This document shows, in pieces, positions 588-60,428 of a DNA stretch of 64,000 nt. A program made the translations under genes and the position numbers. The notes beneath the pieces were generated by a model that was not told where the DNA came from, searched no databases, and was given only the letters and a program-made list of their open reading frames with translations. The first letter of the stretch is position 1. Every line of letters begins with the position of its first letter. The stretch comes from a virus (taxonomy: Duplodnaviria; Caudoviricetes): positions 1 to 64,000 of the IMG/VR virus record IMGVR_UViG_3300002168_000002, one strand, 5' to 3'.

Positions 588-1334
588 CTAATTGTCGGAT
601 TTTCTATTTATTCTATCCCATTCTCTTTGTTGTTCTCTTCTAATCTCTTTCCAGCACTCCCTACAATACATCTTTCTATTAGACGTAAGTTTTATTGGTG
701 CGCTACATTGTTTGCAATAATTGTATTTTTCTGGTTCGGATAAAGCTAAATAGTAATAAATTAAGTTTCTATAATTACCAATTTTAATTACTACCTTTCC
801 TTCTTCTTTTATATTTACAACATAATAATCTTTGTTTCTATATTGCTTCATACTAAGCATACCAGATTGAGTTAATAGAAAAATATTATCCCAAAACGCT
901 TTATTGTATAACTTTGTTTTTGCTAAATCCATTAAATCTTTATTAGTAATCCTAAAACTTTTTGCCCCACGGAACTTCCACACTACTAATAAAACAAACA
1001 TCATTTTTCTTTGTTCAATAGTTTCTAGCTGATTAATTAACTCTATCTCTTTATCAAATATTTCTACAATTTTATCTGTAACTAATTCATATTTCATTCC
1101 TACATTCATTGCTCTTTTTATTTTACTCTCTAATATCTTGCTATTATATAGATATTGAAATTTATCCATAAGTTTATTTAATTTTTTTTTAATTTCTTTT
1201 TCATTTAAACCTTTATATTTCCAGTATTTAACCAAAATTATATTATCGCCAGTTATGTATTTTTCATTTTTATAACCATTAGCAATAATATCTTCCGCAT
1301 ATTTTTTTTCATCAAATATTATCAATTTCAACAC
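588..1334 (-). CDS. hypothetical protein with C-terminal CxxC/CxxC zinc ribbon, coupled to the phage RNAP
   Basis: 248 aa; overlaps the RNAP stop; CKQC...CREC. Confidence 0.75.
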   Translation of the reverse strand: MLKLIIFDEKKYAEDIIANGYKNEKYITGDNIILVKYWKYKGLNEKEIKKKLNKLMDKFQYLYNSKILESKIKRAMNVGMKYELVTDKIVEIFDKEIELINQLETIEQRKMMFVLLVVWKFRGAKSFRITNKDLMDLAKTKLYNKAFWDNIFLLTQSGMLSMKQYRNKDYYVVNIKEEGKVVIKIGNYRNLIYYYLALSEPEKYNYCKQCSAPIKLTSNRKMYCRECWKEIRREQQREWDRINRKSDN

Positions 1335-4116
1335 CCTTTAATTCATAATATTTATCAAGATATTTAATTCCATTTTTACTATTAGATTCTACTGGAAAAT
1401 AAGCTATTTTATATTTGCGTTTTAAATTATCTACAATTTCTTTACCACAAATACTCCACATAATTCCTTTAGATTTTCTCTTAAAATAATTATACATAAT
1501 ATAAATCACATAGTTACATAATTCATATTTATTAAAGCAAATAGCAAATAATTCATTTTCAATTTCTTTGAATAAAATAGAGTATTCTTCGTCTATATTT
1601 TCTTCGATATCTTCATAGTAATCTTCATAATTTTCTAATGTATCTATTTCATTAGCATTAAGTTCATAAACATAATGATATTTTTTTAATACTTTTAATA
1701 TATCATTAAACATATTGCTATTTGTATCAATAACTATATCATCATTCATTAAAATACGATAATCAAATTCATATTTTTGTTTATAAAATTTTAAATCAAA
1801 ATCTATATCTTCTACATACCAACATAATTGATTCATTATAGATTTATTTACTAAAACAGGCATATATTTAAAATAGTTATTTAAAAATCTTTTTTCTTCT
1901 TTAGTTTTATTTTTCTTCTTAAATAATTCATGTAATTTACATCCGAACATAGCTCTACATATTCTTCCTGAACTTTCCTTATGTTCTTTATATTTTTTCA
2001 TTAATATTGGATAAATATAACACATAAAATAACTTTTCTTTTTCCCAGATAATCTATTTATAAACATCTTTCTTTGTTTTTCTTTACTAGAATCATTTTT
2101 CCAATTTATCTTTTCTATTCCATACCAATAAGAGGGAGGAGATATGTATAAATTTCCTTTACCTGCATCAATAGCAGATCCCTGATGAAATCTAAGTAAA
2201 TTTATTCTATAAGTTAATTCTTTATATTCTTCACTATTTTTAGAAAAACTATCCCTCAAACATATAAATGTGGTGGCGAGATTAGTAATAAAACCTATTT
2301 TTGTATTAAAACTTCTTGTATCCATAATAACTAAATTATTATAAGTTAAATTTTGTTCTTTTGTCATTGATGGTTTATATGTAATTGGTTTTAAGCTTCT
2401 ATCTACCGATTCCAGAATATAAGGATTATCTGTTGTCATTAATAAATCTCCATCTACATCACCATCTGATGCCCTCATAAGTGTTGTATCCCAACCGTTA
2501 AGAATAACTCCACTTGTAATTGTAGAATACCAATCGTTACATTTTTCATCAGAATAAACTTGAAGGACATTGTTCTCATGCGGAGAAACTAAAGGACTTC
2601 TAAATAATGCAACTTCTTTTGTGTCCTTATCAACCCATCGTTTTTGCCACAACTGTCCCTCCTTTAATAATCCTTTTGGAGTTTGTCCAAAAATATATTC
2701 ACAATATAAATATGGGTCTACCATAGCAAACTCATACGAGCCCTCTACTAAAAGTTTACCTATTTTAATTTGGTTAATCTTTTTTTGTATTGATCTATAA
2801 ATCCTATCTCTCACATATGAGTCTTTCAAAATATCTTCGCAATACATTAATGCTTTTACCATATCTATACTGGCATGATTTTCTATTTCTTTAATATCTT
2901 TATCTACTTCATGGCAACCAAGCAAATAGAGCAATACATAAATCCTTTCACCCAAACAAACATCTTTAATCCAGTCTATAGAAAAATCAGCAAGCTTCTT
3001 AATTTTTTCAGGAGTAAAAAAATTTGATTGTATATATTGATAATTTAATGCCGTTAAATTATTGTCTTTCTTTTTGTTTACCCTACTGCAACCCCAAATA
3101 TGCCCGTATTTTTCATGGTACTTTAAATACTCTTCCCATGAATCATACTTCTTCCACATCTTAAATTGTGATACGGAAAGAAGAACGTCAATATCGTCAA
3201 TATGCTTTTCGTTTCCCCACACATCTTTTATGTATTCCTTTTTAGCAACTTCTCTTGCATATCTCTTCCAATCAAAAACTACACAAAGACCCTTTATCCA
3301 GGCACTACGGATAATATAAGCAGATGGAGAATAATCGCTAATACCTAAATCCTCATTCCAGAGTTTTGCCATTTCCGTAGAAACCAAACCACTACCATCA
3401 AATACGTTTTGTTTAACGTCTATTGTACGTCTTTCAATATACCTTTCACCTTTATCATCAACATCAATCCATTCAACTTCCTGATCTGGAAGCACACATT
3501 CATAATCAGGAATTATACAAACTCTTGGAGTTCTGATGTAATTGGTTGAAGATGAATAAAGTGAAAAGTATGCTGAAAACTTGGATAGGTTTATTTTACC
3601 TATTCTCTTTTTAGTTAGACCACACATCATTATTTCTTCTAACGCATCATACAACTTTTCATTTACAAATAAAACCGTATTACGACGAAGTTGACCTGCT
3701 CCCGCACATAATCTTTTAAATGTAATCCCGTTTACTTCAAATAAATTCTTAGCAATATGTATGTAATCTTTTTTACTTGTGTTGGCATGGACAGATATTA
3801 AATCTGGAATGAAAAGAATACCATCAATTTGTTTTTGATATTGATAAATTTTTTTGCTATTCTCTAAAGATTTTTGTAAAGATTTTAAATTATTTCGATC
3901 TCTAATAATTTGTTCTAATTTATATTTTTGTTTTTCAAAATCAATCTGTTTTATATCTCTAATAAACTTTAATAACTGGTTATCTCCAATACTTACAACC
4001 CAACCTCTTTTTTTTGCTTCGTTAAGAGATATATTTATCTTTAAATTATTTTCAAGAATCGTATTGACATTAAGTTTTAGTATGTAAAATAAATCCATTT
4101 TTTTAGCCAATATCAA
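1312..4116 (-). CDS. yonO: YonO-like single-subunit RNA polymerase (two-barrel, eukaryotic RdRP-like)
   Basis: 934 aa; catalytic DxDGD motif (ASDGDVDGD), FRSP upstream, FDGSG, IGFITN, QGSAIDAGKG. Confidence 0.88.
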   Translation of the reverse strand: MILAKKMDLFYILKLNVNTILENNLKINISLNEAKKRGWVVSIGDNQLLKFIRDIKQIDFEKQKYKLEQIIRDRNNLKSLQKSLENSKKIYQYQKQIDGILFIPDLISVHANTSKKDYIHIAKNLFEVNGITFKRLCAGAGQLRRNTVLFVNEKLYDALEEIMMCGLTKKRIGKINLSKFSAYFSLYSSSTNYIRTPRVCIIPDYECVLPDQEVEWIDVDDKGERYIERRTIDVKQNVFDGSGLVSTEMAKLWNEDLGISDYSPSAYIIRSAWIKGLCVVFDWKRYAREVAKKEYIKDVWGNEKHIDDIDVLLSVSQFKMWKKYDSWEEYLKYHEKYGHIWGCSRVNKKKDNNLTALNYQYIQSNFFTPEKIKKLADFSIDWIKDVCLGERIYVLLYLLGCHEVDKDIKEIENHASIDMVKALMYCEDILKDSYVRDRIYRSIQKKINQIKIGKLLVEGSYEFAMVDPYLYCEYIFGQTPKGLLKEGQLWQKRWVDKDTKEVALFRSPLVSPHENNVLQVYSDEKCNDWYSTITSGVILNGWDTTLMRASDGDVDGDLLMTTDNPYILESVDRSLKPITYKPSMTKEQNLTYNNLVIMDTRSFNTKIGFITNLATTFICLRDSFSKNSEEYKELTYRINLLRFHQGSAIDAGKGNLYISPPSYWYGIEKINWKNDSSKEKQRKMFINRLSGKKKSYFMCYIYPILMKKYKEHKESSGRICRAMFGCKLHELFKKKNKTKEEKRFLNNYFKYMPVLVNKSIMNQLCWYVEDIDFDLKFYKQKYEFDYRILMNDDIVIDTNSNMFNDILKVLKKYHYVYELNANEIDTLENYEDYYEDIEENIDEEYSILFKEIENELFAICFNKYELCNYVIYIMYNYFKRKSKGIMWSICGKEIVDNLKRKYKIAYFPVESNSKNGIKYLDKYYELKGVEIDNI

Positions 4117-6877: not shown

Positions 6878-7714
6878 CTAGCAAAAACAAGCTTCTTTCA
6901 TATTCAATTTTTCCCGCATAGCGTCTCTCGTAGGATGTGTATAAACTAGCACAGTATTTAAATTACTATGCCCCAACTGTTCCTGTAATTGCCTTATATT
7001 TAAAATACCTTTTTCCAAAGCGTTAGTAGCAAATAAATGTCGTAAACTATGGGGGGTTATATCGCTACTATATTTATTAAATACACTTTCTATTGCCCTT
7101 GGCACAAGTTTTTCGCCTTTATTGCTAACAAAAAGATATTCAGATATACCGGCATATTTATATTTATCTCTATGATTTTTTAAATATTCCTCAATCGCAT
7201 TAATTGCAGGTTGATTTACAGTTATTTCACGTTGCTTGCTACCTTTTCCTCTAGAAACAATAATTTCTCCTCTGGTTAAATTTTTTAAGTCCTTTAATTT
7301 AATTGATAGTGCTTCGCTAATTCTTAAGCCAGTATTAGCAATAAGTACAACTATAGCATAATTACGAAAAGGTTCATTGCGTTTGATTTTATTGATAAAT
7401 TGCTTGAGGTCTTTTTTGGTTATAGTAGTAGGAGAAGAAAAAGATTTTTGAATAGAAATATAGTCTTGTGATTTAATTATATTACCAACTCCAAGAAAGT
7501 TACTATATTGTTTTAAAGAAGATAACGTACGGTTTATAGTTTTAGCATTAATATTTTTAGATTCTAACTGAGACTTATAAGACAGTACATTTTTCCTGTT
7601 AAATTCACCAAAACATACAAAAAAGTTTTTTAAATCATTGGTATAATTTTTAATTGTGTTGTCAGACTTTCCTTCATCTTTGAGATAATTGATAAAATCC
7701 TGCATTGTGAACAC
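6878..7714 (-). CDS. tyrosine recombinase (XerC/D-like)
   Basis: SAM-like N-terminus; TGLRISE, GKGSKQR, HSLRH, LGHS, catalytic Tyr in VYTH. Confidence 0.92.
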   Translation of the reverse strand: MFTMQDFINYLKDEGKSDNTIKNYTNDLKNFFVCFGEFNRKNVLSYKSQLESKNINAKTINRTLSSLKQYSNFLGVGNIIKSQDYISIQKSFSSPTTITKKDLKQFINKIKRNEPFRNYAIVVLIANTGLRISEALSIKLKDLKNLTRGEIIVSRGKGSKQREITVNQPAINAIEEYLKNHRDKYKYAGISEYLFVSNKGEKLVPRAIESVFNKYSSDITPHSLRHLFATNALEKGILNIRQLQEQLGHSNLNTVLVYTHPTRDAMREKLNMKEACFC

Positions 7715-12146: not shown

Positions 12147-12220
12147 AATATTACCAAATTAGTAATATTACCAAATTAGTAATATTACCAAATTAGTAAT
12201 ATTACCAAATTAGTAATATT
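12147..12220. repeat. perfect 17-bp tandem repeat AATATTACCAAATTAGT x4.3
   Basis: units start at 12147, 12164, 12181, 12198. Confidence 0.95.
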
Positions 12221-12558
12221 TCGAGTTTTAACACTGATAAATATCTCTGAGTATTCTACTTCCAAAAAAGAAATACAAAAATAATAAATTACCAGTTCAA
12301 AAATCAATTTTAAGACGTTTTTTTGCTCTATCTAATATAAAAGTATTCGTTTTTAATTTTTATTCTAAGGCTATTATTTTACGTTTTAAGACGTTTTACC
12401 ATTTTTTAGGTTGCTTTGTTCGATACTTTTAGCCTTTTGTTCGGTACTTTTTTATACAAAAAATCTATTTCCATTTATGGAAAAAAATAACTATAGATAA
12501 GATATGCTGTAACTATAGAAAAAAACTATAGAAAAATATTAAAATACAAATATAAAAA

Positions 12559-14947: not shown

Positions 14948-15640
14948 ATGTGTATCATTATTTACAAACCTAAAGGTAAAGATTTGTCTAGAGATCATCT
15001 GATAACATCTTTTGAAAACAATTTTGATGGAGCAGGTTTTATGTATCAAGAAAAAGGGAAGGTTATTATTGATAAGGGATTTATGTATATCGAAGAACTT
15101 TTCCACGCATTGAAAAAACTCGATGCAAAAAATAAGGATATTGTTCTTCATTTTAGATTTGCAACTCATGGAGAGATATCACCGGAGAATTGCCATCCTT
15201 TCCCAATAACAGATAAAGAAAAAGAATTAACATTGCTTGAAACAGTATGTGAAGCAGGAATAGCGCATAATGGCATTATTCCTTTTTGTAATGACAAAAA
15301 AAGTCATTTATCGGACACGCAAATATTTATAAAAAAATATCTGTCTAAACTCAATAACAGTTTAAACAATCCTGCTTTGCATGAATTAATATTGCAAAGT
15401 ACCGAATCAAAATTCGCCATAATGACAAATAATAATGTTTATCTTTTAGGAGACTTTATAAAGGAAAAAGGAATATTTTATAGTAACAGTAGTTACAAAA
15501 AATTAAAATTTTATAGTTTAAAAAAATCTTTTCTGCAATGCGAATGCTGCGGAAAATATATAACGGAAAAAGAAGAAGCTTTTTATAATTATGATATTGT
15601 AATTTGTGAGTATTGTAATAATCTTTTTGCAGGTATTTAA
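14948..15640 (+). CDS. class II (Ntn) glutamine amidotransferase
   Basis: N-terminal Cys2, DGAG, HFRFATHG, NCHPF, HNG, SDT. Confidence 0.88.
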   Translation: MCIIIYKPKGKDLSRDHLITSFENNFDGAGFMYQEKGKVIIDKGFMYIEELFHALKKLDAKNKDIVLHFRFATHGEISPENCHPFPITDKEKELTLLETVCEAGIAHNGIIPFCNDKKSHLSDTQIFIKKYLSKLNNSLNNPALHELILQSTESKFAIMTNNNVYLLGDFIKEKGIFYSNSSYKKLKFYSLKKSFLQCECCGKYITEKEEAFYNYDIVICEYCNNLFAGI

Positions 15641-15713
15641 TTCTTGCAATATAGGCAGGATATTCCTGTCTATCATGGAAGGATTAAATTTAAAAAAAAA
15701 GGAGATGGAAGGA

Positions 15714-16349
15714 ATGAAAAGTAACAAAGAACAATTATTACTTACCAGTGCCGACAATATGGAAATAACTGCTAACAGGTGGATTGAACATTATAACAAC
15801 AACAAAGGATTATATAATTACATTTTTAACCAAAATGTAATTATAGCAAAAAATGGAAAATATACAATTTCCCAGGAACTGGAAGCAATAACAACCACAA
15901 AAAATTACATGATTAGCTTCCAGGAACTGGAAGACTTGAAGCAGGAGTCAATCCTGCTTATGATGGAATTTATTTCCAGGAGAGGGACGATACTTTACAG
16001 ATATAAATATACTATCTGGAAACAATGCGTACAAAGGGCCATTGTAAAGCACGTCAGACAACAAAGGAGATTCTTTTTACAACCTGAAAACCTTGATCAA
16101 AAAATAGCCTGGGATAAAGGCGAACGTGTGCAGGTCGATCCTGGCGAATATTCTCAAATTGACTTTAAAATTGACGTTAAAAACCTTGATACACTAAACA
16201 AGAAAGAGAAGCAAATAATAATGTTTCTTTTTCAGAAATACAAGCAAAAGGAAATTGCCGATATGTTAAAAATATCGTCGCAAATGATAAGCAAATATAT
16301 TCGTCAGATAAGGAAAAAATTATCTGCTGCTGAATTAATGAACGCATAA
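15714..16349 (+). CDS. phage sigma70-family factor (ECF/TcdR-like size)
   Basis: region 2-like EDLKQE...RQQRR and region 4 LNKKEKQII...KQKEIADMLKISSQMISKYIRQIRKKL; RBS supports start at 15714. Confidence 0.75.
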   Translation: MKSNKEQLLLTSADNMEITANRWIEHYNNNKGLYNYIFNQNVIIAKNGKYTISQELEAITTTKNYMISFQELEDLKQESILLMMEFISRRGTILYRYKYTIWKQCVQRAIVKHVRQQRRFFLQPENLDQKIAWDKGERVQVDPGEYSQIDFKIDVKNLDTLNKKEKQIIMFLFQKYKQKEIADMLKISSQMISKYIRQIRKKLSAAELMNA

Positions 16350-25313: not shown

Positions 25314-26776
25314 TTAATGCAATATAAAAAACAACATTATCAAAAATGTCCTAGGTGTAATAAAGAGGGATGGAAAAATGATTATATTTGCCATAAACAT
25401 AAACCAGCAACAAAAGATTCTGTAAAAAAAAAGAGGGTGAAATAATTGAAACAACGTATCAGTGATAAAAATTTATTTTATATAATGTTATTTATTCAAA
25501 AGGGAATATCAGAAATTACACTAAGAAATATTTTAAAAAGAAATAAGTCATTAAAATAAAAATATAAAAAAAGGAGTTGATAAAATGGAATTAACAAAAA
25601 CAGAAATAAGAGTTTTAAGGAATTTGCACCTAACTGGCGGAACAGGAAAGATGGGAAGCATGAGTTTAAAACAAAGAAGGGAATTAATTAGAGGGTTATT
25701 AGCAAAAGGATTGATAGATGAAAGAGCAAAGTTAACAAAAAAAGGAATTGAAGCAAGTTTACCGTCAAATATCAAAAGGCAGGATTAATTTCTCCTGCCT
25801 ATTTTTTTATTTAGTGGTTGATTTTTATATCTATTAGAAGTTAGTATTATATAAGGAGATGATCAAATGGAAAACAAGGAACAAATTCTTTCAGTTGGCG
25901 AAGTTGTAAAAAGCAATAGTTCTTATGGAAATTGGGTTGTACCGTATGATATTTACATCCCTATTGGCAATAGAAGAATAACAAATTTAAGGTTTTTCTT
26001 TAAGAAAAAAGATGCTACAAAATGGGTTGAAGAACAGAAGAAATTATTAACTGAGGAGGATTAACAAAATGAAAAAATTTGTTGAAATGGAAAGGGAAAA
26101 ATTTGGGGAAATGTTAAAAGATACAGAATTTGATTGGTTGCTTTACCATTTCCCTATCCTGAATCAGTTTTTGAATAATATTGTTATAACAGGATTTTCT
26201 CCTGGTGGAGATAATTACAATAACGATCAGGCGATTATACTTGACATAAACGACCCAAAGATAAGGTACATAATAAAATATTTAGGGGATGATGGAATAG
26301 GAGATATGATAATATATGAGAAGAAAGAAATATTTTGTTCTTATTGAAACTTCAGCGATAAAGAATATAACTTAATTACTTACAAAGAAGAGACTTTTTT
26401 AGTCTTAACAGCAGGAGATTAATTTCTCCTGCTAATTTTTATTTAGTAACAAAAATTTTAAGGAGGCTATAATAGAATGATATACAGCGATGTAATAAAA
26501 AATAATTGGCATTTATTATTACCTAAAAAGAAAAAATATACAAAAACAGATATCAAAAAAATACTTAAAAAAATTAATGTATCAGAACAAATTGCAAGGT
26601 TTATTGTTTTGTGTACTGCAATATATTATGATACAACTTGTAGTATATATATTTATAATTATAACAACACTAAAAATCAAATTAAAAGAATGATATAAAA
26701 TCACGATTCAGTTAAAATTAGGTTTACTTTTTTGTGGTTAGTAAGTTAGTATTATATGAGATTAAAATAAAAGGAG

Positions 26777-27292
26777 TTGATCAAAATGAAAGAATGTAAG
26801 AGATGTAATGGACAAAAACAAATTGAAAATTTAAGTGGAGGGTATAGGATTTGCTATGCTTGTAATGGAGAAGGTTATTTCCCTAAACCAGATTATAAAC
26901 AAATTCTTATTGACATAACAGGAACAAAAGGGAAAACAAAAGGAACATTGCGAAAAAGCCCTCCATTTAAAACAAGAGAAAGGAACAATATAAGAGCAAA
27001 AAGAGCTTATTATGTTTGGAGATTAGCGAGGTTTCATGGTGGAGCAGATGTAACAATGCCTATGAATGCAGAATTTGACATTGCAGGAGATCCTTATGCA
27101 GATGAACTTGATAAATTTTCAGGATTGGTTGCGGAAAAGGTTTTTGGAAGTCAAATGGCAGCAGCATATAGATGGGGATCAGTTTTAGGATATGTTAAAA
27201 ATGTACCATTAGGTCAACCAAATTCAGCATATGAAAGTGGAAGGGTTGCAGATAACAATAAACCATTAGAAGAACTTGCAGAAATGTTTTAA
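26777..27292 (+). CDS. hypothetical protein with DnaJ-like CxxCxGxG zinc finger
   Basis: CKRCNG...CYACNGEG. Confidence 0.75.
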   Translation: MIKMKECKRCNGQKQIENLSGGYRICYACNGEGYFPKPDYKQILIDITGTKGKTKGTLRKSPPFKTRERNNIRAKRAYYVWRLARFHGGADVTMPMNAEFDIAGDPYADELDKFSGLVAEKVFGSQMAAAYRWGSVLGYVKNVPLGQPNSAYESGRVADNNKPLEELAEMF

Positions 27293-27369
27293 CCTATATT
27301 AACAAAATAAAAGGAGTTGTTAAAAATGAATATTAAAAGGCAGGATTAATTTCCTGCCTAAATTTTTAT

Positions 27370-27398
27370 TTGACAGGATTTTATTAAAGTGCTAAAAT
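27370..27398 (+). promoter_or_regulatory. sigmaA promoter
   Basis: TTGACA-N17-TAAAAT with TG. Confidence 0.75.
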
Positions 27399-27427
27399 AA
27401 AAATATCAATTTAAAGGAGGATTTTCA

Positions 27428-28528
27428 ATGGAGAGATTTAACAAAACAGTAACGGCAAAGAGGATCTCTCGTGATGTAACGGAGGACAAAATTAATCTTA
27501 ACTGTATCATTCAAAGAGGTGAAGCATGGAATAATTATCAGAAGTCTTTACTTATTCATTCTATGCTTAGTGATTTTCCTGTACCGCCTCTTTTTGCACA
27601 GGAACAGGAAGGAGATTCAATACTTCATGTGCTTGATGGCAAACAGCGAATTTTAACTATTAGCCAATATTTAACAGATGGATTTATCCTGCATGACAAT
27701 ACGCCAAAATTTAATGGGCAAAAAATTGCAGGATTAAAATTTTCCGAACTAGAAGAAGAAATGCAAGATAAAATCAAGGATTTTAATTTACTAATATATT
27801 ATTTTAGGAATATGTCAGAGCAAGAACGTGATGAAATGTTTTTGCGCTTGAATAACGGAAAATCTCTTTCTAGAATTGAGTTAACCAGAGTAGAAGCAGG
27901 ACAGGAATTTATGGAATACGTTAGAGAACTTGCACAAAATTCTTTCTTTCAAAATTGCAATTTTACGGCATCTGCATTAAACAAGTTTGCAGATGAAGAA
28001 GTAATTTTACATTGTATAAATATGTTACTTTATGATGGTATGGATGGTTTGTCAGGAAAGGTTATTTCTGACATGGTAAAAGATTTAAAAGTAAATGGAT
28101 TAACAGAAGTAGACAAGAAAAATTTAACAGATACAGTTGAATTTCTGAATATAGCATTCACGGAAAAAGAAAAATTTTTAAAGAAAGTTAACATTCCTAT
28201 TATTTTCTATGTTGCTATGCAGGTAAAGGATGATATACCTGCAACAGAATTTTACTTGAAGGTTAGGGAGTTTTTCAAATCTCCAACAGAAGAATATAAA
28301 GAAGCAGCACAGACAGCTAGCGCAAAGGCTGAAAATGTGCAGACAAGAATTGAAGAACTTTCTAACTATATAGAGCAGTTTTTAACAAGCGAACAAGAAC
28401 AAGAAGAAGAACCAGAAGAAGAATTTCAAGAGGAAAAACAAGAAGAAAATTTTATTGATGAAGAACAGGATGCAATACATGAACTTGAACAACAATACGG
28501 CACAGAGTTTGCACAGCTAGGAATCTGA
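27428..28528 (+). CDS. DUF262 (ParB/GmrSD-like) protein with acidic tail
   Basis: IQR...W, LIHS, VLDGKQR, FLRLNNG. Confidence 0.85.
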   Translation: MERFNKTVTAKRISRDVTEDKINLNCIIQRGEAWNNYQKSLLIHSMLSDFPVPPLFAQEQEGDSILHVLDGKQRILTISQYLTDGFILHDNTPKFNGQKIAGLKFSELEEEMQDKIKDFNLLIYYFRNMSEQERDEMFLRLNNGKSLSRIELTRVEAGQEFMEYVRELAQNSFFQNCNFTASALNKFADEEVILHCINMLLYDGMDGLSGKVISDMVKDLKVNGLTEVDKKNLTDTVEFLNIAFTEKEKFLKKVNIPIIFYVAMQVKDDIPATEFYLKVREFFKSPTEEYKEAAQTASAKAENVQTRIEELSNYIEQFLTSEQEQEEEPEEEFQEEKQEENFIDEEQDAIHELEQQYGTEFAQLGI

Positions 28529-28817
28529 GCTAACAAGGCAAATATAAGGGCAAAAACATGATTATTTAATTAGGTTTTTGCCCTTAATTGCCTTCAAATT
28601 TTAAAACGAATACTCTAACCTTGCTTATTATTTTTAAAGCCCAAAATGGGGCAAATTTTACGTTATAATAGGAGGGTTTTTATATGTTAAATTGCCAAAG
28701 ACAAAATTATAATCATTCAAAGTTGCCTGTTCCTGGTGCTATTGGATATATGTCAATTACCCCTCCTAAACCACAAGCGGCTATAGAAGGGGTCTTTTTG
28801 CCAAAGGAGAGATAAAA

Positions 28818-28946
28818 TTGACTATAATAGAATACTTAACAGCAATACAAGTCATGTTTTTGGTTGTTTGGCGCATGTTGCCTTTTATGCTAATTGCTCT
28901 TCCTTTAACAATTTTAACATTAAAAATATTTAAATTGCAAATATAA
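28818..28946 (+). CDS. 42-aa hydrophobic peptide, paralog of 24456-24584
   Basis: RBS AAGGAG, TTG start. Confidence 0.6.
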   Translation: MTIIEYLTAIQVMFLVVWRMLPFMLIALPLTILTLKIFKLQI

Positions 28947-29235
28947 ATAATAAGAAAGAAATGTGTATAAAAGAACTACTTTATATTATATTGTTTATTA
29001 GAGGTATGATAACAGAAAAATATTTGAGGAAAATTTTAAAAAGGGGTTAACTTTTTGGAGTATGGAAAGTTAGTATTATATAGAACAACAAAAGGAGTGA
29101 TTAAAACAAAATAAAAGTTAGTTTTATCCAATGAAAAACTTAAAAATTTTTGAAAATTAGTATTGACAGGATAAAGGAACATATGGCTGGACTGAATTAA
29201 TGTTTAAATAATAAAATAATAGGAGGTTAACAACA

Positions 29236-46464: not shown

Positions 46465-46845
46465 ATGGAAAAAATGTTTGAAAGAGCAACAAGAGAAAAG
46501 ATGAGGTTTTCGTTTAAAGGACAAATTAGTGTGGAGGATCTTTGGGATTTATCAGTTGAAGATTTAGATTCAATTTTTAAAACTCTTAACAGACAAGCAA
46601 AACAAGTTAAAGAAGAAAGTTTGCTTCAAGTAAAAACTAAACAAGACGAAGAAGTTGATTTAAAAATTGAGATTGTAAAGTATATAGTTAAAGTTAAACT
46701 AGAAGAACAAGAACAAAAACAAAAAGAAAAAGAGAGAAAACAACAAAGGCAAAAAATATTAGAGATATTGTCTATGAAAGAAAATGAAAGTTTGCAGAAT
46801 AAATCAATTGATGAACTAAAAGCAATGCTTAACGAATTAGAATAA
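46465..46845 (+). CDS. coiled-coil partner of the 683-aa protein
   Basis: RF...SVEDLWDL, charged helix. Confidence 0.75.
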   Translation: MEKMFERATREKMRFSFKGQISVEDLWDLSVEDLDSIFKTLNRQAKQVKEESLLQVKTKQDEEVDLKIEIVKYIVKVKLEEQEQKQKEKERKQQRQKILEILSMKENESLQNKSIDELKAMLNELE

Positions 46846-46854
46846 TAATAGAAA

Positions 46855-46886
46855 TATAGGCAGAAAGTTTGTCTTTCTGCCTATTA
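46855..46886 (+). terminator. hairpin/terminator before mazF
   Basis: TAGGCAGAAAG/CTTTCTGCCTA. Confidence 0.7.
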
Positions 46887-47037
46887 TTAAATATGTTTAT
46901 TGGAGGTATTATTATTGAGTAAAAAAGACATTTTAATAAAATAAAAAAATAAAGTTTATAATGTATGAATAAAACAATGTTGGGCAGAATAGTTATATAG
47001 TAATAAAATAACTATATAACTATCAGGAGTGATTTAG

Positions 47038-47442
47038 ATGATTCAAGCCCAAATTGTTAATAATGATATTCAAGTATGGCAAACGTGGTTTCCTAAAAGA
47101 GGAGATGTTTATTACTGTAATTTGGATGGAATTGATAGTGAGCAGCAAGGAATAAGACCTGTTGTGATTCTATCAAATAATAAAGGTAATTTTTACGGTA
47201 GTATTGTAGTAGTTGCTCCAATTACAAGTAAGAAAAAACATCTTCCTCAAATTCATGTTTCTGTTGGGAAAGAGATAGGATTAAAAATTGATAGTTATGT
47301 TCTTACTGAACATATTAGAACTATTAGTAAAAGAAGGTTTTTTATTAACGGTAACTATCCTACTAAAATAACAACATTCTCTAAATATAAAATGATAGAA
47401 ATAGAGGATGCTATAAAATGTGAATTAGGCTTTACAAACTGA
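47038..47442 (+). CDS. mazF: PemK/MazF-family endoribonuclease, no obvious antitoxin
   Basis: KRGDVY, SEQQGIRPVVILSNN, VAPITSK, EHIRTISK. Confidence 0.9.
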   Translation: MIQAQIVNNDIQVWQTWFPKRGDVYYCNLDGIDSEQQGIRPVVILSNNKGNFYGSIVVVAPITSKKKHLPQIHVSVGKEIGLKIDSYVLTEHIRTISKRRFFINGNYPTKITTFSKYKMIEIEDAIKCELGFTN

Positions 47443-47580
47443 ATATGTCGAAATGTTTATATTGTAAAATAATTTATATATTATAAAATTAATAGAGATG
47501 TATTGATTTATATTTAATTTAATGTATAATTATATACAAACAACTGTTTGTATAAATAAATTTAAAATGGAGGAAGAGTA

Positions 47581-47871
47581 ATGGTAAATAAGATGGTTTA
47601 TGTAATACTAGATAGAGATGGTAACTACATTGCTCCAGGAAACTTTATTAACACTCGCCAAACAGAACAGGGATGGTATTTCTTTAAATTTACGGGTGAC
47701 TCTACAGGATTTGTTTTCTATACATCTAAAAAAACAGCAGAGTTTGAACTGAATGCACTTAGAGGATTAGGATATGATTTTGTTTTAGAGTGTGTGGATT
47801 TTAATTTAATACCTAAAGGCAAAAGAATAAAAAATAATTGCTTATATAAAAAAAAAGATAATACTTATTAA
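47581..47871 (+). CDS. hypothetical protein between mazF and the yopQ-like gene
   Basis: 96 aa, RBS GGAGG, sigmaA-like promoter upstream. Confidence 0.75.
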   Translation: MVNKMVYVILDRDGNYIAPGNFINTRQTEQGWYFFKFTGDSTGFVFYTSKKTAEFELNALRGLGYDFVLECVDFNLIPKGKRIKNNCLYKKKDNTY

Positions 47872-47955
47872 AAAATAATTTTATAATACATAATTTCATT
47901 GACTTTTACTTATAATTATAATAAAATACATAATTAAAGGAGGTACAATGAAATT

Positions 47956-49275
47956 ATGTTAAAAGAAAAACAAATTAAATTAAAAGAAAAACTTAAAAAT
48001 ATAATAGCGGAAGTAGGACATATTGTGGATATTAAACAAGAAATAGCAAATGAATTTCTTAGTAGAAATTTGCCAGCATATAGAGCTGCACAGGTTTTTA
48101 TGGGCAATGAATCACTAGATACTATTGGTGATTCTGAAGTTGATATTGGATTTTTATTTTTATTTTCTGTTGCCTTAAATAAAGCAGTAGAACAAAAAAC
48201 AAATCTAGGCATAAAAATAAATGTTGAAGATTATTTTACACAAATAGAAATTAAACAGTGGAGCAATTATAAAGAAGAAAAATTAAAAGATGATGTATAT
48301 CCTGTTATATTTGAAAATGTCCAACAAATTTCAGATCGAATTTGGCAAACCATTATAACAGCACAAGAGCTTGCAAAATTAGATGTTGAAAATTTGTTGC
48401 TATATAATTTTAAAACTCAACGATCTCCTAAAATAACTGTATCTGGTATAAAAATTGATTTTGATAAAAGAAAAATGATTGAGATTAAAAACAGAATATT
48501 AAATGGAGAACAATTTCCTGACCATATTAAGATAAATATCTTAAATAATTTTCAAGAAAAAATTCATTATGATCCTAAAAAACAAATCTTAACAATTGGC
48601 GAGGGTTCAACAATTAATATCTTTGACGGTTATCATAGAAAGGTAGCCAATTCCCTTGTTGTTGAAGAAAATCCCGAAATTAATTTTACTTGGGGACTTA
48701 TTATTACTAATCTATCTGAAAATGCAGCCAGGGATTATATGGTTCAGATTAATAAACAAAAACCAATTAAAAAGGAGCAAATAAAAGTATGGGATTTAAA
48801 CAAGAAGGAAAATCTTATTGTTAGTGTTATTGCTGATGATAAGATAAGCAAGCTTAATAAAGTAATGAAAGAACAAGATATAGAAATTAAATACGGTAGA
48901 GGACTAACTACAAAAAATATTATTGCAGAAGCCATAAAAGAAAATTATGTTTTGGACGATAATACTGATATAAGAGAGTTGGGTAGTTGGATTGTGACAT
49001 TTACTGATTATCTTTTTCATTTATATCCTAATGAATTTGTCGTTGGTAGAAATGAAAATTTTATGAACCATAAATATATTTTTTATGGGTATATTGCATT
49101 ATCCGCACAATTAAGAGGTAATAGTAATTGGAAAGAAGAAACTAAAAAAAAGATAGATAACATTAACTTTGATAAGAATAATATATTATGGAGAGATATT
49201 GGATTCACATCTAAAAAATTAAATAAAACATCACGTAATAAACTTTATAAGTTGTTTAGAAAGGAGGGTTTATAA
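47956..49275 (+). CDS. YopQ-like DndB/ParB-superfamily (DGxHR) protein
   Basis: YNFKTQR, IFDGYHR, QINKQKP; coupled to the MrpR-like gene. Confidence 0.7.
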   Translation: MLKEKQIKLKEKLKNIIAEVGHIVDIKQEIANEFLSRNLPAYRAAQVFMGNESLDTIGDSEVDIGFLFLFSVALNKAVEQKTNLGIKINVEDYFTQIEIKQWSNYKEEKLKDDVYPVIFENVQQISDRIWQTIITAQELAKLDVENLLLYNFKTQRSPKITVSGIKIDFDKRKMIEIKNRILNGEQFPDHIKINILNNFQEKIHYDPKKQILTIGEGSTINIFDGYHRKVANSLVVEENPEINFTWGLIITNLSENAARDYMVQINKQKPIKKEQIKVWDLNKKENLIVSVIADDKISKLNKVMKEQDIEIKYGRGLTTKNIIAEAIKENYVLDDNTDIRELGSWIVTFTDYLFHLYPNEFVVGRNENFMNHKYIFYGYIALSAQLRGNSNWKEETKKKIDNINFDKNNILWRDIGFTSKKLNKTSRNKLYKLFRKEGL

Positions 49276-50270
49276 TGGATATTATTTTTAAAAGAGATAA
49301 TGAACTTAAACAAGAATATTTAAGTACAAAACCAACAGCTACAGCAAAAGCAAATACGTTTGTTTTGCGTTTAGCTGATGAATATGAAAACTTAATTAAC
49401 AAATCAATTTATAACATGAATTATTCTGAGTTATATGAAATGCTTCTTGTACGATTTAAGAATTCTTCGGTAAGAACTATTATAAAAAACGTATCTATAC
49501 TAAAAAAATATATAGACTTTTGTTTGGATAAAAAAGTTGTAGAACATGGAGAAAACAGGTTATCTGTATTTACAAGAGAAGAAGCAAAAAGAATTGTGCA
49601 TAAACAAGCAATGTTAAATAAATATATTAGTAGAGAAAAACTTAGAGAGTATCAAAATATTTTATATAACGAACAAGATCAACTTTTGATTGAATTACCC
49701 TTCATAGGGGTTAGAGGTAGAACTGTAGAAAATGGAACATTGGAAGAAATAATTAATCTTACTATGCCTATAAAAAAAGATGAAGAAAATAACACTTTAA
49801 CTCTTGTACAAAACAATGGCAAAAGTAGAAGATTAGATGTAAAAACATCTACTATGGCATTAATAAGAAACACATATGAGCAAGAAGTGTATGTTGAAAA
49901 CAATAGTCAAGAAACAAATAATGTAAGATTATCATTTCAACCTAGAAAAATTCAAATTAACAAAGTAGAAAATTATGTACTAAGAGTGCCTGGGAAAAAT
50001 AAATACGAAAAATTTACTCCTAATTTACTTAATTCTAGAATGAAAAGAATCCAGAAGTATTTAGATAATCCTTATCTATCGTTTACTTCTTTGTATCAAT
50101 CAGGGATGATTCAGCTTGCGGTGGATAAGTATAAAGAAAATGGGGTTGTAACAAAAGAAGATTATATAGAAATTTGTATTAGGTTCAATTATGGATCGGG
50201 AAATCCAGAAAAGTATTGGTTTGAAGTAAAAGATTTGTTTAAACAGTATAAAAAGTTGTTGCATATGTAA
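49275..50270 (+). CDS. MrpR/YopR-like repressor (degenerate tyrosine recombinase fold)
   Basis: SAM-like N-terminus, FIGVRG...EEIINL, SLYQSGMI in place of HxLRH; synteny with the yopQ-like gene. Confidence 0.65.
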   Translation: MDIIFKRDNELKQEYLSTKPTATAKANTFVLRLADEYENLINKSIYNMNYSELYEMLLVRFKNSSVRTIIKNVSILKKYIDFCLDKKVVEHGENRLSVFTREEAKRIVHKQAMLNKYISREKLREYQNILYNEQDQLLIELPFIGVRGRTVENGTLEEIINLTMPIKKDEENNTLTLVQNNGKSRRLDVKTSTMALIRNTYEQEVYVENNSQETNNVRLSFQPRKIQINKVENYVLRVPGKNKYEKFTPNLLNSRMKRIQKYLDNPYLSFTSLYQSGMIQLAVDKYKENGVVTKEDYIEICIRFNYGSGNPEKYWFEVKDLFKQYKKLLHM

Positions 50271-58235: not shown

Positions 58236-60428
58236 ATGCGTGTACTATTTTTAATGCGAGGCGCACCAGGAGTAGGCAAAAGTACATTTATAAAAGAAAA
58301 TAATCTTGAACAGTATTCTTTATGTGCCGACAACGTTAGATTATTAATTCAATCTCCTGTTTTAGATATAAATGGAAATTGGACTATCAGCCAAAAGAAC
58401 GATAAAAGAGTATGGGAATTATTGTTTACTATGCTTGAAGATAGAATGAAACGTGGAGAATTTACAATTATTGATGCAACAAATAGTAAAACAGTTGAAA
58501 TGAACAGATATAAAAAATTAGCTGATAAATATCGTTATAGAAAATATTTAATTGATTTTACAGATGTTCCTATTGAAGTAGTAAAAGAAAGAAATAGAAA
58601 TAGAAATAGTTACAAAATAGTTCCTGAAGAAGCTATTGATACAATGTATGCAAGATTCAAAACTCAAAAAGTTCCAAGTGGATTTATTGTAATTAAACCA
58701 GAAGAATTTAAAGAAACAATCAATAATATTTATTCTATTAGAGATTTTTCCAACTATAATAAGATACACCATATAGGAGATCTTCATGGTTGTTTTACTG
58801 TATTAAATGAGTATTTAAAGAATGGGTTAGAAGATGATGAATTGTATATTTTTGTTGGCGATTATCTTGATAGGGGTATAGAAAATGCCGATGTTCTTAA
58901 ACTTCTATTAGAAATTTATACAAAAGAAAATGTGATACTACTTACGGGTAATCATGAGCAATATCTATATAATTATGCTCATGATCTTCCTGGAGTAAGT
59001 AAAGAGTTTGAAATAAATACAAGACCACAACTAATAGAAGCTAATTTTGATAAAAAAGATGTTAGACAACTTTACAGGAAGTTTGCACAATTCGCTTATT
59101 ACAAATATTATAACAGGATTGTACTTGTAACTCATGGCGGGTTAAGTTGTATACCAGATAATTTTGTCTTTATTTCTACTGAACAATTAATTAAAGGTAT
59201 CGGAGATTATAAAGATATGGGAAAAATAAATGAATCGTTCCTAAAAAATACAAATAAAAATGTTTATCAAATTCATGGTCATAGGAATGAGTCAGGTTCC
59301 CCGATACAAATTAATGAAAGGTGTTTTAATTTGTGTGGTAAAGCAGAATTTGGAGGCACTTTAAGAATAGTTACATTGTCGAAGGAAGGATTTGAACGTA
59401 TTGAAATCCCTAATACAGTTTATAAACAAATAGAAAAAAGAAGTAATAGTATAGATGGTATTACTATAGAAAATCTAGTTCGTCTTTTAAGAGATAATAA
59501 ATATATTCGAGAAAAGAAATTTGGAAATATATCTTCTTTTAATTTTACCAGAGACGCATTTAACGATAAGATATGGGATAATATAACTACAAAAGCAAGA
59601 GGTTTATTCATTAACACAAACACCAATAAAATTGTGGCAAGAAGTTATAATAAATTTTTTAATATAAATGAAGTAGAAGAAACCAAAATGAAAAATTTGC
59701 AAAACTTACTTGCCTATCCTTTACGTATATATGTTAAATATAATGGATATTTAGGGATAATAGGTTATGATGAAGAAAATGATGATTTAGTAATTACATC
59801 TAAAACATCATTAACTGGTACTTTTTCAGATAATTTTAGAAGAATATTTAATAATAAAATAAAAAACAAAGATTTTATGAAAAAATATTTAAAAGAAAAT
59901 AATTTATCTTTTGTAGTTGAAGTAATTGATCCAATTAATGACCCCCATATTATTGAGTATGAAAATGAAGATATTATTTTGTTGGATGCTATATATAGAG
60001 ATATGAATTATAAGAAATTATCTTATGATGAATTATTATTTGTAAGTGAGTTGTTTAATTTGAGTATTAAAAAGCTTGCATTTATTATGTATAATTGGAA
60101 TGATTTTTATAATTGGTATGAAAGTGTTACAGTAGATGATTATAAATATAATAATAAATATATAGAAGGATTTGTAATAGAAGATGCCAATGAATTTATG
60201 TTTAAAATGAAATTAGCTTATTATAATAACTGGAAGTTTATGCGTAATGTAAAAGATAGTGTTGCAAAACATGGAGCAATTAGATATACAGGAGCTTTAA
60301 CTACAAAAAAACAAAATATGTTTTATGGTTGGTTAAAAGAATTACCAAAAGAAGAATTGGAATTAGATATCATTACTTTAAGAAAGAAATTTTTAGCTGA
60401 AAAAGAAAAAGTGTTAGAAGTAATATAA
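58236..60428 (+). CDS. polynucleotide kinase - metallophosphoesterase - RNA ligase fusion
   Basis: GAPGVGKS; GDLHG, GDYLDRG, GNHE, HGH; KYNG, EGFV, KMK ligase motifs. Confidence 0.88.
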   Translation: MRVLFLMRGAPGVGKSTFIKENNLEQYSLCADNVRLLIQSPVLDINGNWTISQKNDKRVWELLFTMLEDRMKRGEFTIIDATNSKTVEMNRYKKLADKYRYRKYLIDFTDVPIEVVKERNRNRNSYKIVPEEAIDTMYARFKTQKVPSGFIVIKPEEFKETINNIYSIRDFSNYNKIHHIGDLHGCFTVLNEYLKNGLEDDELYIFVGDYLDRGIENADVLKLLLEIYTKENVILLTGNHEQYLYNYAHDLPGVSKEFEINTRPQLIEANFDKKDVRQLYRKFAQFAYYKYYNRIVLVTHGGLSCIPDNFVFISTEQLIKGIGDYKDMGKINESFLKNTNKNVYQIHGHRNESGSPIQINERCFNLCGKAEFGGTLRIVTLSKEGFERIEIPNTVYKQIEKRSNSIDGITIENLVRLLRDNKYIREKKFGNISSFNFTRDAFNDKIWDNITTKARGLFINTNTNKIVARSYNKFFNINEVEETKMKNLQNLLAYPLRIYVKYNGYLGIIGYDEENDDLVITSKTSLTGTFSDNFRRIFNNKIKNKDFMKKYLKENNLSFVVEVIDPINDPHIIEYENEDIILLDAIYRDMNYKKLSYDELLFVSELFNLSIKKLAFIMYNWNDFYNWYESVTVDDYKYNNKYIEGFVIEDANEFMFKMKLAYYNNWKFMRNVKDSVAKHGAIRYTGALTTKKQNMFYGWLKELPKEELELDIITLRKKFLAEKEKVLEVI

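Follow-up and report, generated by a model that had tools for sequence, protein, structure and literature searches.

A stand-alone phage MazF next to YopQ- and MrpR-like genes: a candidate lysis-lysogeny module of a clostridial SPbeta-like phage

The involvement of the endoribonuclease MazF in lysis-lysogeny decisions is a recent finding and is, to our knowledge, known only for Bacillus phages that exploit the MazEF of their host. In SPbeta and phi3T the sro operon (sroA-F, equal to yopM-R) acts together with arbitrium and host MazEF (PMC10769878; bioRxiv 10.1101/2023.04.27.537455; PMC10516654). Phage phi3T uses the host MazF, which is inhibited by AimX and YosL (PMC10769878), and this MazF spares the sro operon, while a LexA-controlled small antirepressor, Sar, inactivates SroF (bioRxiv 10.1101/2025.11.27.690993). 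Here we analyse a locus in which mazF is carried by the phage itself. It lies within the first 64 kb (the window) of a 108,575-bp viral contig of IMG/VR (IMGVR_UViG_3300002168_000002; 28% GC; completeness 66% by CheckV) and comprises four genes, all on the + strand within 46.9-50.3 kb: mazF, a gene for a protein of 96 amino acids (aa), a yopQ-like gene and an mrpR-like gene. In a text search of the literature no paper turned up that describes a MazF encoded by a phage in this lysogeny role.

With moderate confidence we propose that these genes form the lysis-lysogeny control of a clostridial SPbeta-like phage and represent a self-contained version of the MazF-dependent switch of phi3T, in which the MazF is the phage's own.

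The four-gene module and its conservation

The elements of the module are the following.

46856-46884: GC-containing hairpin with a 12-bp stem, from a terminator-like scan, ending the upstream gene (46465-46845)
46963-46991, + strand: putative sigmaF/G-like promoter GTATG-N15-GGCAGAATA, 47 nt before mazF
46989-47021, + strand: 13-bp inverted repeat in the mazF leader just before the ribosome-binding site (RBS); RNA hairpin of -14.5 kcal/mol; not conserved in relatives
47038-47442, + strand: mazF, predicted stand-alone PemK/MazF endoribonuclease of 134 aa (PF02452), catalytic Arg and Thr kept, no adjoining antitoxin gene
47503-47530, + strand: sigma-A-like promoter TTGATT-16-TATAAT of the 96-aa gene
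47533-47554: perfect 10+10 palindrome TATACAAACA-AC-TGTTTGTATA, core AAAC-N4-GTTT, between the -10 box and the RBS of the 96-aa gene, at the LexA-box position of relatives
47581-47871, + strand: 96-aa gene, member of a small-protein family (the small gene), heading yopQ-mrpR
47899-47931, + strand: private yopQ-mrpR promoter TTGACT-17-TAAAAT, with TACAT (47927-47931) at the border of -10 box and start site
47956-49275, + strand: yopQ/sroE-like gene, 439 aa (DGYHR, DndB-like), with the motif FDGYHRK, membership of phrog_5732 and a weak DndB match
49275-50270, + strand: mrpR/sroF-like gene, 331 aa, predicted integrase-fold repressor (PF22822 MrpR_N_CB, E 1.6e-11)

The predicted MazF matches PF02452 with 87 bits (E 1.2e-24; cut-off 23.1) over profile positions 1-106 of 109 and also belongs to phrog_1936, 'MazF-like growth inhibitor'. 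Its best PDB matches are the MazF/EndoA proteins of B. anthracis, S. aureus and B. subtilis, which align end to end at E 5e-17 to 1e-14. The motifs GIRPV, with the catalytic Arg, and APIT, with the catalytic Thr, align with GVRPV and AAIT of the solved MazFs and the two residues presumably correspond to R25 and T48 in B. subtilis numbering; Arg and Thr/Ser are retained in 10/10 members of the clade. Identity to the MazFs of B. subtilis and its Firmicute relatives is about 40%, and a 19-residue N-terminal extension and an RRFFxNGxxP insertion are common to the phage clade. Close relatives are rare, with 12 clusters at E up to 1e-10 among 5.8 billion proteins, each on few contigs.

A MazEF pair has a cognate antitoxin gene of the MazE/AbrB, ribbon-helix-helix (RHH) or a similar type adjoining, normally upstream and co-transcribed, and the window mazF has no such neighbour. 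There is no open reading frame (ORF) of at least 20 aa between the upstream hairpin and mazF, and MazE (PF04014) has no match anywhere on the contig, which at its 66% completeness does not prove absence. Among the mazF neighbours of relatives no antitoxin family was found except for an unrelated VbhA-like match. Since the hairpin terminates the upstream gene, mazF is considered a transcription unit of its own. The sequence-only reading, made before any database search, had described an intact orphan MazF with only a terminator and a sigmaF-like site before it, and in both respects it holds.

Downstream of the small gene, genes of the SroE (YopQ) and SroF (YopR/MrpR) type adjoin in that order, as in an sro operon. 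The YopQ-like protein shares 27% identity with SPBc2 yopQ across 86% of its length, and the MrpR-like protein 23% with yopR across 90%. Because the latter has no PF00589 match it is best described as a degenerate recombinase, the name that it had been given from the letters alone; this protein, the DGYHR protein and a 96-aa protein of no recognised family were all recovered where they had first been placed.

When MazF, the 96-aa protein, YopQ and MrpR were each used singly to scan viral contigs, no useful match resulted. The relatives came from scanning IMG/VR, GTDB genomes and JGI metagenomes with alignments, by which about 25 related loci were obtained. Genes were called with hidden Markov models built from the window and two relatives and searched against all ORFs of the loci. 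The order small gene-yopQ-mrpR is found in 21/21 loci with upstream DNA. Moreover, mazF lies upstream on the same strand, 0-5 kb away, in 12/12 loci with at least 5 kb of upstream DNA (the window, L010, L030, L034, L018, L033, L024, L005, L008, L015, L016 and L032). Lack of conservation of this linkage had been named beforehand among the observations that would speak against a MazF role, and the survey found it kept throughout.

The distance between mazF and the small gene varies. The two are direct neighbours in the window, in its near-twin L010 and in L030, and L034 is of the L030 type with an IS605-type insertion. They are separated by 2-3 kb in L018 (ParMR, FtsK-like and relaxase-like genes) and L033 (a TPR protein and a methylase). 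A long module is shared by L005, L008, L015, L016 and L032, and reads: a 270-aa membrane protein, a fusion of an XRE-type helix-turn-helix (HTH) domain, MazF and a helical tail (about 290 aa), p100 (100-160 aa), AgrB, small gene, yopQ, mrpR, p130 (130 aa) and hth130 (HTH-like, 130 aa). In a model of the fusion (predicted local distance difference test, pLDDT, 80) the MazF core superposes on S. aureus MazF with Z 17.6 and a root-mean-square deviation (rmsd) of 1.8 A over 113 residues, the N-terminal domain resembles XRE regulators (Z 8-9.6) and the tail consists of three helices. In L024 an unfused mazF is followed by p100 and AgrB, and in L015 and L016 the fusion is accompanied by an additional, unfused mazF that lies about 4 kb further upstream. 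Neither p100, AgrB, the 270-aa membrane protein, p130 and hth130 nor the N- and C-terminal MazF extensions of these relatives were found on the window contig, which has a minimal four-gene form of the module.

Identity between lineages is 33-52% for MazF and 27-54% for the small protein. MazF, the small protein and MrpR have correlated identity matrices (Spearman 0.52-0.69), while that of YopQ shows no correlation (about 0), in keeping with a mosaic history. As MazF co-diverges with the small protein and MrpR, it is regarded as an old, co-inherited part of the module and not as a recent moron. Co-variation was also tried as a means to choose between a small-MrpR and a small-MazF pairing, and it gave no separation (rho 0.69 vs 0.64).

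Some further features of the related loci deserve mention. In L034 (8189-9557) an IS605-type TnpB stands between mazF and the small gene and is followed by a duplicated 3' piece of mazF. In L033 (6015-8205) small-yopQ-mrpR is preceded by genes for a tyrosine recombinase, a 191-aa MazF whose C-terminal tail is helical and a TPR protein of 199 aa. The additional genes of the long module (L005 222-3404 and L008 5302-8126, also in L015, L016 and L032) encode a multi-pass membrane protein, the fusion and AgrB (PF04647, E 3e-36); in L005 and L008 no AgrD-like ORF and no kinase gene follows agrB. Judged by these family matches, the relatives with AgrB have peptide-signalling hardware where SPbeta has arbitrium. 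In L009 (457-1182), and likewise in L023, L027 and L032, the small gene and yopQ are separated by an inserted gene that resembles a homing-type endonuclease. Finally, the cultured SPbeta-like Psychrobacillus phage Perkons (MT325768.1) has a lone PemK/MazF gene (15265-15627) behind an Spx-like gene, about 11 kb upstream of a yopP-yopQ-yopR-like trio (25786-29219) on the same strand, and is a possible model for experiments.

Loss of UACAU from the repressor genes

The MazF of B. subtilis cuts UACAU (Park et al. 2011, as cited in bioRxiv 10.1101/2023.04.27.537455). The occurrence of this pentamer was compared with an expectation from synonymous-codon shuffling (300 shuffles) in 18 loci, whose yopQ and mrpR genes amount to 42 kb. 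These genes hold 23 UACAU against 51 expected (z -4.9), a deficit reached by 0/300 shuffles, and no other pentamer among the 642 whose expectation is 15 or more is depleted as strongly as UACAU. The reverse complement (z +1.2) and the single-base variants (near 0) are not depleted, so the loss is attributed to the RNA level and to this motif specifically. Over the 18 loci the counts are distributed as follows.

yopQ: 8 observed, 24.1 expected
mrpR: 15 observed, 28.6 expected
p130: 1 observed, 3.0 expected
hth130: 0 observed, 1.0 expected
mazF: 10 observed, 9.6 expected
small gene: 20 observed, 11.4 expected
all other genes: 124 observed, 103.5 expected
agrB, p100 and membrane protein: ratio about 1

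A depletion check had been proposed together with the synteny survey, and it reveals a repressor operon that is selectively purged among phage genes that are not. The small gene has at least one UACAU in 17/17 cases at a length of just 220-320 nt, and the 96-aa gene of the window has two (47626-47630 and 47721-47725). The window yopQ and mrpR have none (1.6 and 2.7 expected, together 0 vs 4.3), the window mazF likewise has none, and the 118 non-module genes of this genome have 127 against 111 expected. The count from the window by itself is weak because nearby genes (50.6-52.5 kb) also lack the motif, and the signal becomes clear only across the 18 loci. The sro operon of SPBc2 is not depleted (8 vs 6.1 expected), and for this reason the signature is not a mere restatement of the Bacillus case.

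One TACAT has been retained in a conspicuous place. A yopQ-mrpR promoter of the form TTGAC-N17-18-TATAAT is present in 14/14 loci read. In 12/14 (the window, L005, L008, L016-L018, L020, L021, L024, L029, L030 and L033) its -10 box is immediately followed by TACAT, which lies on the likely start site or just ahead of it, in an operon otherwise purged of the motif. Judging by position, this UACAU would be included in read-through transcripts that begin at the small gene, and probably not in those that the promoter itself starts. The conserved TACAT may accordingly mark a MazF cut that separates read-through from the repressor message, and so insulates it, or may be a promoter or operator element at the DNA level. 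No MrpR-box family was obvious near the module in a repeat scan of the window, which found phage promoter families and was not a dedicated box search.

A proposed switch and its alternatives

The 96-aa protein has no Pfam, PHROG or PDB sequence match and was not found in any annotated phage. Its family has 48 representatives in 1.8 billion proteins, mostly of 70-110 aa, occurs in 2/400 sampled Clostridia genomes and shares the core VYVIxDxxGNYIsP...GW.Y..YTG..TGF.FY; fused or longer forms (P0029, P0048, P0014) are uninformative on its role. The model (pLDDT 86) has the order beta-beta-beta-alpha-beta, a fold for which the PDB gave no match (Foldseek E above 0.5; best VIA, Z 5.2, rmsd 4.3 A, 68 aligned residues). 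Between the -10 box and the RBS of the small gene a LexA-type box is present as GAAC-N4-GTTC in 12 loci and as AAAC-N4-GTTC, with one mismatch, in 2, and is lacking in 3. L010 has the same AAAC-N4-GTTT palindrome as the window at the same spot. Clostridial LexA boxes are GAAC-N4-GTTT/C (PMC4234289), and the window palindrome is consequently either a LexA variant weak on both sides or the operator of another protein. By analogy with Sar, the 96-aa protein would be an SOS-induced switch protein, most likely acting on the YopQ/MrpR pair.

The switch that we propose would comprise three transcription units: mazF alone, behind the sigmaF/G-like promoter; the 96-aa gene, with a sigma-A promoter and, overlapping it, a LexA-type operator; and yopQ-mrpR with its own strong promoter. 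In the lysogen yopQ-mrpR would be expressed from this promoter, and LexA, or perhaps another protein in the window phage, would keep the small gene off. DNA damage would turn the small gene on and repression would be counteracted, the 96-aa protein acting against the YopQ/MrpR pair in the role that Sar has in phi3T, with a differing fold. Active MazF would cut UACAU-bearing phage messages, that of the small gene included, and spare the site-free yopQ-mrpR message, and the cell would be biased to repression (lysogeny or dormancy), as reported for host MazF in phi3T. The window mazF would perhaps be read by a forespore-type sigma factor, and in relatives a MazF fused to an XRE domain and set among AgrB or TPR genes would stand at arbitrium's position in SPbeta. 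Restraint of the lone MazF could come from promoter control, host MazE or an unrecognised partner. More tentatively, and as a possibility that we would not yet call probable, one may speculate that this clade has internalised the MazF arm of the phi3T-type switch, with an antitoxin-less MazF, a purged repressor operon, in this phage a forespore-type promoter that would couple dormancy to sporulation, and in relatives peptide signalling of the Agr or TPR type.

Several observations weigh against the proposed switch. The small protein is net basic by residue count of its translation and so would not be a DNA mimic like Sar, and the PDB offers no match to it. No LexA box precedes the small gene in L018, L020 and L029, and the window operator is AAAC-N4-GTTT and not GAAC-N4-GTTC. 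The UACAU specificity of the window MazF is presumed from its similarity to the UACAU-cutting B. subtilis enzyme and the Firmicute relatives, and a toxin without antitoxin is hard to square with stable lysogeny unless it is tightly repressed. The unpurged sro operon of SPBc2 means that purging is not a general mark of the known system, and relatedness among the 18 loci leaves the UACAU counts not fully independent. Equally, the loss could be due to a host MazF, as the signature does not tell host from phage MazF. The suggestion that the phage MazF is the decision effector is supported in so far as the purge fits an effector that spares the repressor messages; the titration of host MazE that had been offered beside it would depend on the host. 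As the phage mazF is conserved and co-diverging, we find the phage's own MazF the simpler explanation.

The sequence-only reading had further suggested that the 96-aa protein inhibits MazF, that is, a new downstream antitoxin which together with MazF would be the effector pair of the decision. In its favour, mazF and the small gene adjoin in three loci (the window, L010 and L030), no complete locus lacks either of them, the identity matrices of their products correlate at rho 0.64, no other conserved candidate partner lies next to stand-alone mazF genes, and UACAU sites in the small-gene mRNA would give toxin-antitoxin feedback. The small gene nevertheless stays at yopQ whatever the distance to mazF, also where mazF is 1.6-4 kb off with ParMR/FtsK, AgrB, TPR or methylase genes between, and a tandem form of it occurs in L006, an ordinary small temperate phage with neither YopQ nor MrpR and without MazF in 10 kb; for these two reasons the SOS switch protein is rated above the antitoxin. 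The small protein correlates at least equally with MrpR (rho 0.69), the LexA box of most loci implies a gene that would be off in the lysogen, and the basic protein has no MazE/AbrB, RHH or AimX-like features and no antitoxin-like fold. The inhibitor role is consequently unlikely and was not upheld.

It also appears improbable that MazF is an accessory gene outside the switch, be it an addiction (stability) toxin of a plasmid-like prophage or an RNase of defence or superinfection exclusion, held by host MazE or an unrecognised antitoxin, with the UACAU purge due to host MazF pressure. PemK/Kid toxins are classic plasmid addiction genes, PHROGs class such genes as morons, and ParM is found on the contig along with an FtsK-like gene and a recombinase of the Xer type. 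Lone MazFs are moreover present in many unrelated large Firmicute phages, such as Perkons, where ORF37 is 11 kb from the yopPQR-like trio. An accessory gene would however hardly be expected to keep its linkage to the repressor module across lineages in which MazF is just 33-52% identical, nor to co-diverge with MrpR, as a recently gained moron does not. Nor was an antitoxin-like gene found in any locus, and five relatives have a MazF that is fused to an XRE-type HTH and stands among signalling genes (AgrB) at the SPbeta position of arbitrium.

A sporulation-coupled role, which presupposes a spore-forming host and is compatible with the proposed switch, depends on the promoter of mazF. Forespore sigma F/G would transcribe mazF, MazF would silence lytic messages in the forespore and the phage would be carried into the spore. 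The sigmaF consensus of B. subtilis is GYATA-N15-GGnnAnAHTR, to which the window site conforms, and the sigmaF/G consensus of C. difficile is reported to be very similar (PMC3789822). With the search pattern G[TC]AT[AG]-N14-16-GGnnAnA[ACT]T[AG] only 2 matches were found in 108 kb, both intergenic and both facing a gene. A common form, GTATGAATA-N11-12-TGG[GA][CT]AGAATA, precedes the unfused mazF of the window, L018, L015 and L016, the MazFs of the last three being only 39-52% identical to that of the window; the site noticed at first is thereby conserved in four lineages. The motif is, however, of low information in DNA of 28% GC and its class, assigned by eye against the B. subtilis consensus, is putative. 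Sigma-A-like promoters stand before the mazF genes of L030, L033 and L024 and before the fused forms, and a phage sigma factor (15606-16349) could read the site. We hold this role to be very unlikely. The second match of the pattern, at contig 74023-74053 (about 10023 in L035), is 29 nt before an N6/N4 DNA methylase gene (74082-74825).

Phage setting and comparison with known systems

Outside the module the following features characterise the contig.

1312-4116, - strand: YonO-type RNA polymerase, 934 aa (family match to PF05183, RdRP)
6878-7714, strand opposite to the module: Xer-type recombinase gene, the sole PF00589 gene on the contig (match 6929-7423)
10768-11691, - strand: ParM-like gene
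15606-16349: phage sigma factor gene
contig 99933-101633: large serine recombinase

The 934-aa protein places the phage near SPbeta, because its family is that of the single-subunit RNA polymerase YonO. With this polymerase, YopQ and YopR homologues in SPbeta order, the serine recombinase and ParM, the phage is, as far as gene content indicates, a clostridial SPbeta-like phage. The related locus L008 originates from a Clostridium metagenome-assembled genome, and a DNA search against GenBank phages brought up nothing but a C. difficile phage-plasmid, through the upstream phrog_2018 gene. The ParM-like gene has upstream of it 4 tandem copies of a 17-nt unit (AATATTACCAAATTAGT; 12147-12231), which may be a centromere (parC) or an iteron array. 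At 58236-60428 (+ strand) a 730-aa fusion protein is encoded that joins a polynucleotide kinase (AAA_33), a phosphoesterase (Metallophos) and an RNA ligase of the T4 Rnl1 type, and represents an RNA healing-and-sealing enzyme. The products of MazF have 2',3'-cyclic phosphate and 5'-OH ends, the type that such enzymes repair, and a link of the fusion to the phage MazF or to host RNase toxins is possible.

If the proposed switch is true, MazF-based switching would be a general and portable design, in which a phage RNase and purged repressor messages are combined with swappable sensors such as an SOS box, a forespore-type promoter, AgrB or a TPR protein. Such a switch is testable from sequence, as the motif, the protected operon and the sensitive message are all predicted. 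It raises the question of how an antitoxin-less toxin is tolerated, and bears on the biology of large temperate phages and phage-plasmids of Clostridia.

Compared with chromosomal type II MazEF systems (B. subtilis EndoA/YdcDE, S. aureus MazEF and B. anthracis MoxXT), the window MazF is alike in fold, catalytic residues and about 40% identity, and unlike in having no upstream MazE or antitoxin-like neighbour and in its N-terminal extension and RRFFxNGxxP insertion. Like Sar (phi3T_99, YopT), the small gene is near a repressor of the MrpR/SroF type and has, in most relatives, a putative LexA box between promoter and RBS. It differs in that it lies upstream of yopQ, whereas Sar is downstream of sroF, and in the variant operator of the window. 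Its beta-beta-beta-alpha-beta model matches neither YopT (2DLB) nor any PDB chain, and the protein is net basic, whereas Sar is an acidic DNA mimic forming an intertwined dimer.

With the sro operon of SPbeta and phi3T the module shares adjoining YopQ/SroE and YopR/MrpR/SroF genes in the same order, a backbone with a YonO-type polymerase and a serine recombinase, and, in the proposed switch, a MazF RNase tied to the decision, with a repressor operon that here appears from its sequence to be MazF-protected. Here, however, MazF is phage-encoded and adjoins the operon, the hosts are Clostridium-type, and the strong UACAU depletion of the repressor genes is absent from SPBc2. No AimR/AimP was found on the contig; the initial failure to recognise aimR extends to all 108 kb, where NF038310 has no match, and while the missing part of the genome could hold it, the gene is not at its canonical place. 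Neither was an AimX/MazE-like inhibitor found. The module has no sroA-C and no YopP/SroD-like gene before yopQ, which is preceded by mazF and a different head gene, the 96-aa gene, while a yopP-like gene is present in Perkons, E3 and SPBc2. The differences from the known Bacillus case that sequence comparison suggests, namely a phage-encoded RNase, no arbitrium, absence of SroA-D and another head gene, have good comparative support.

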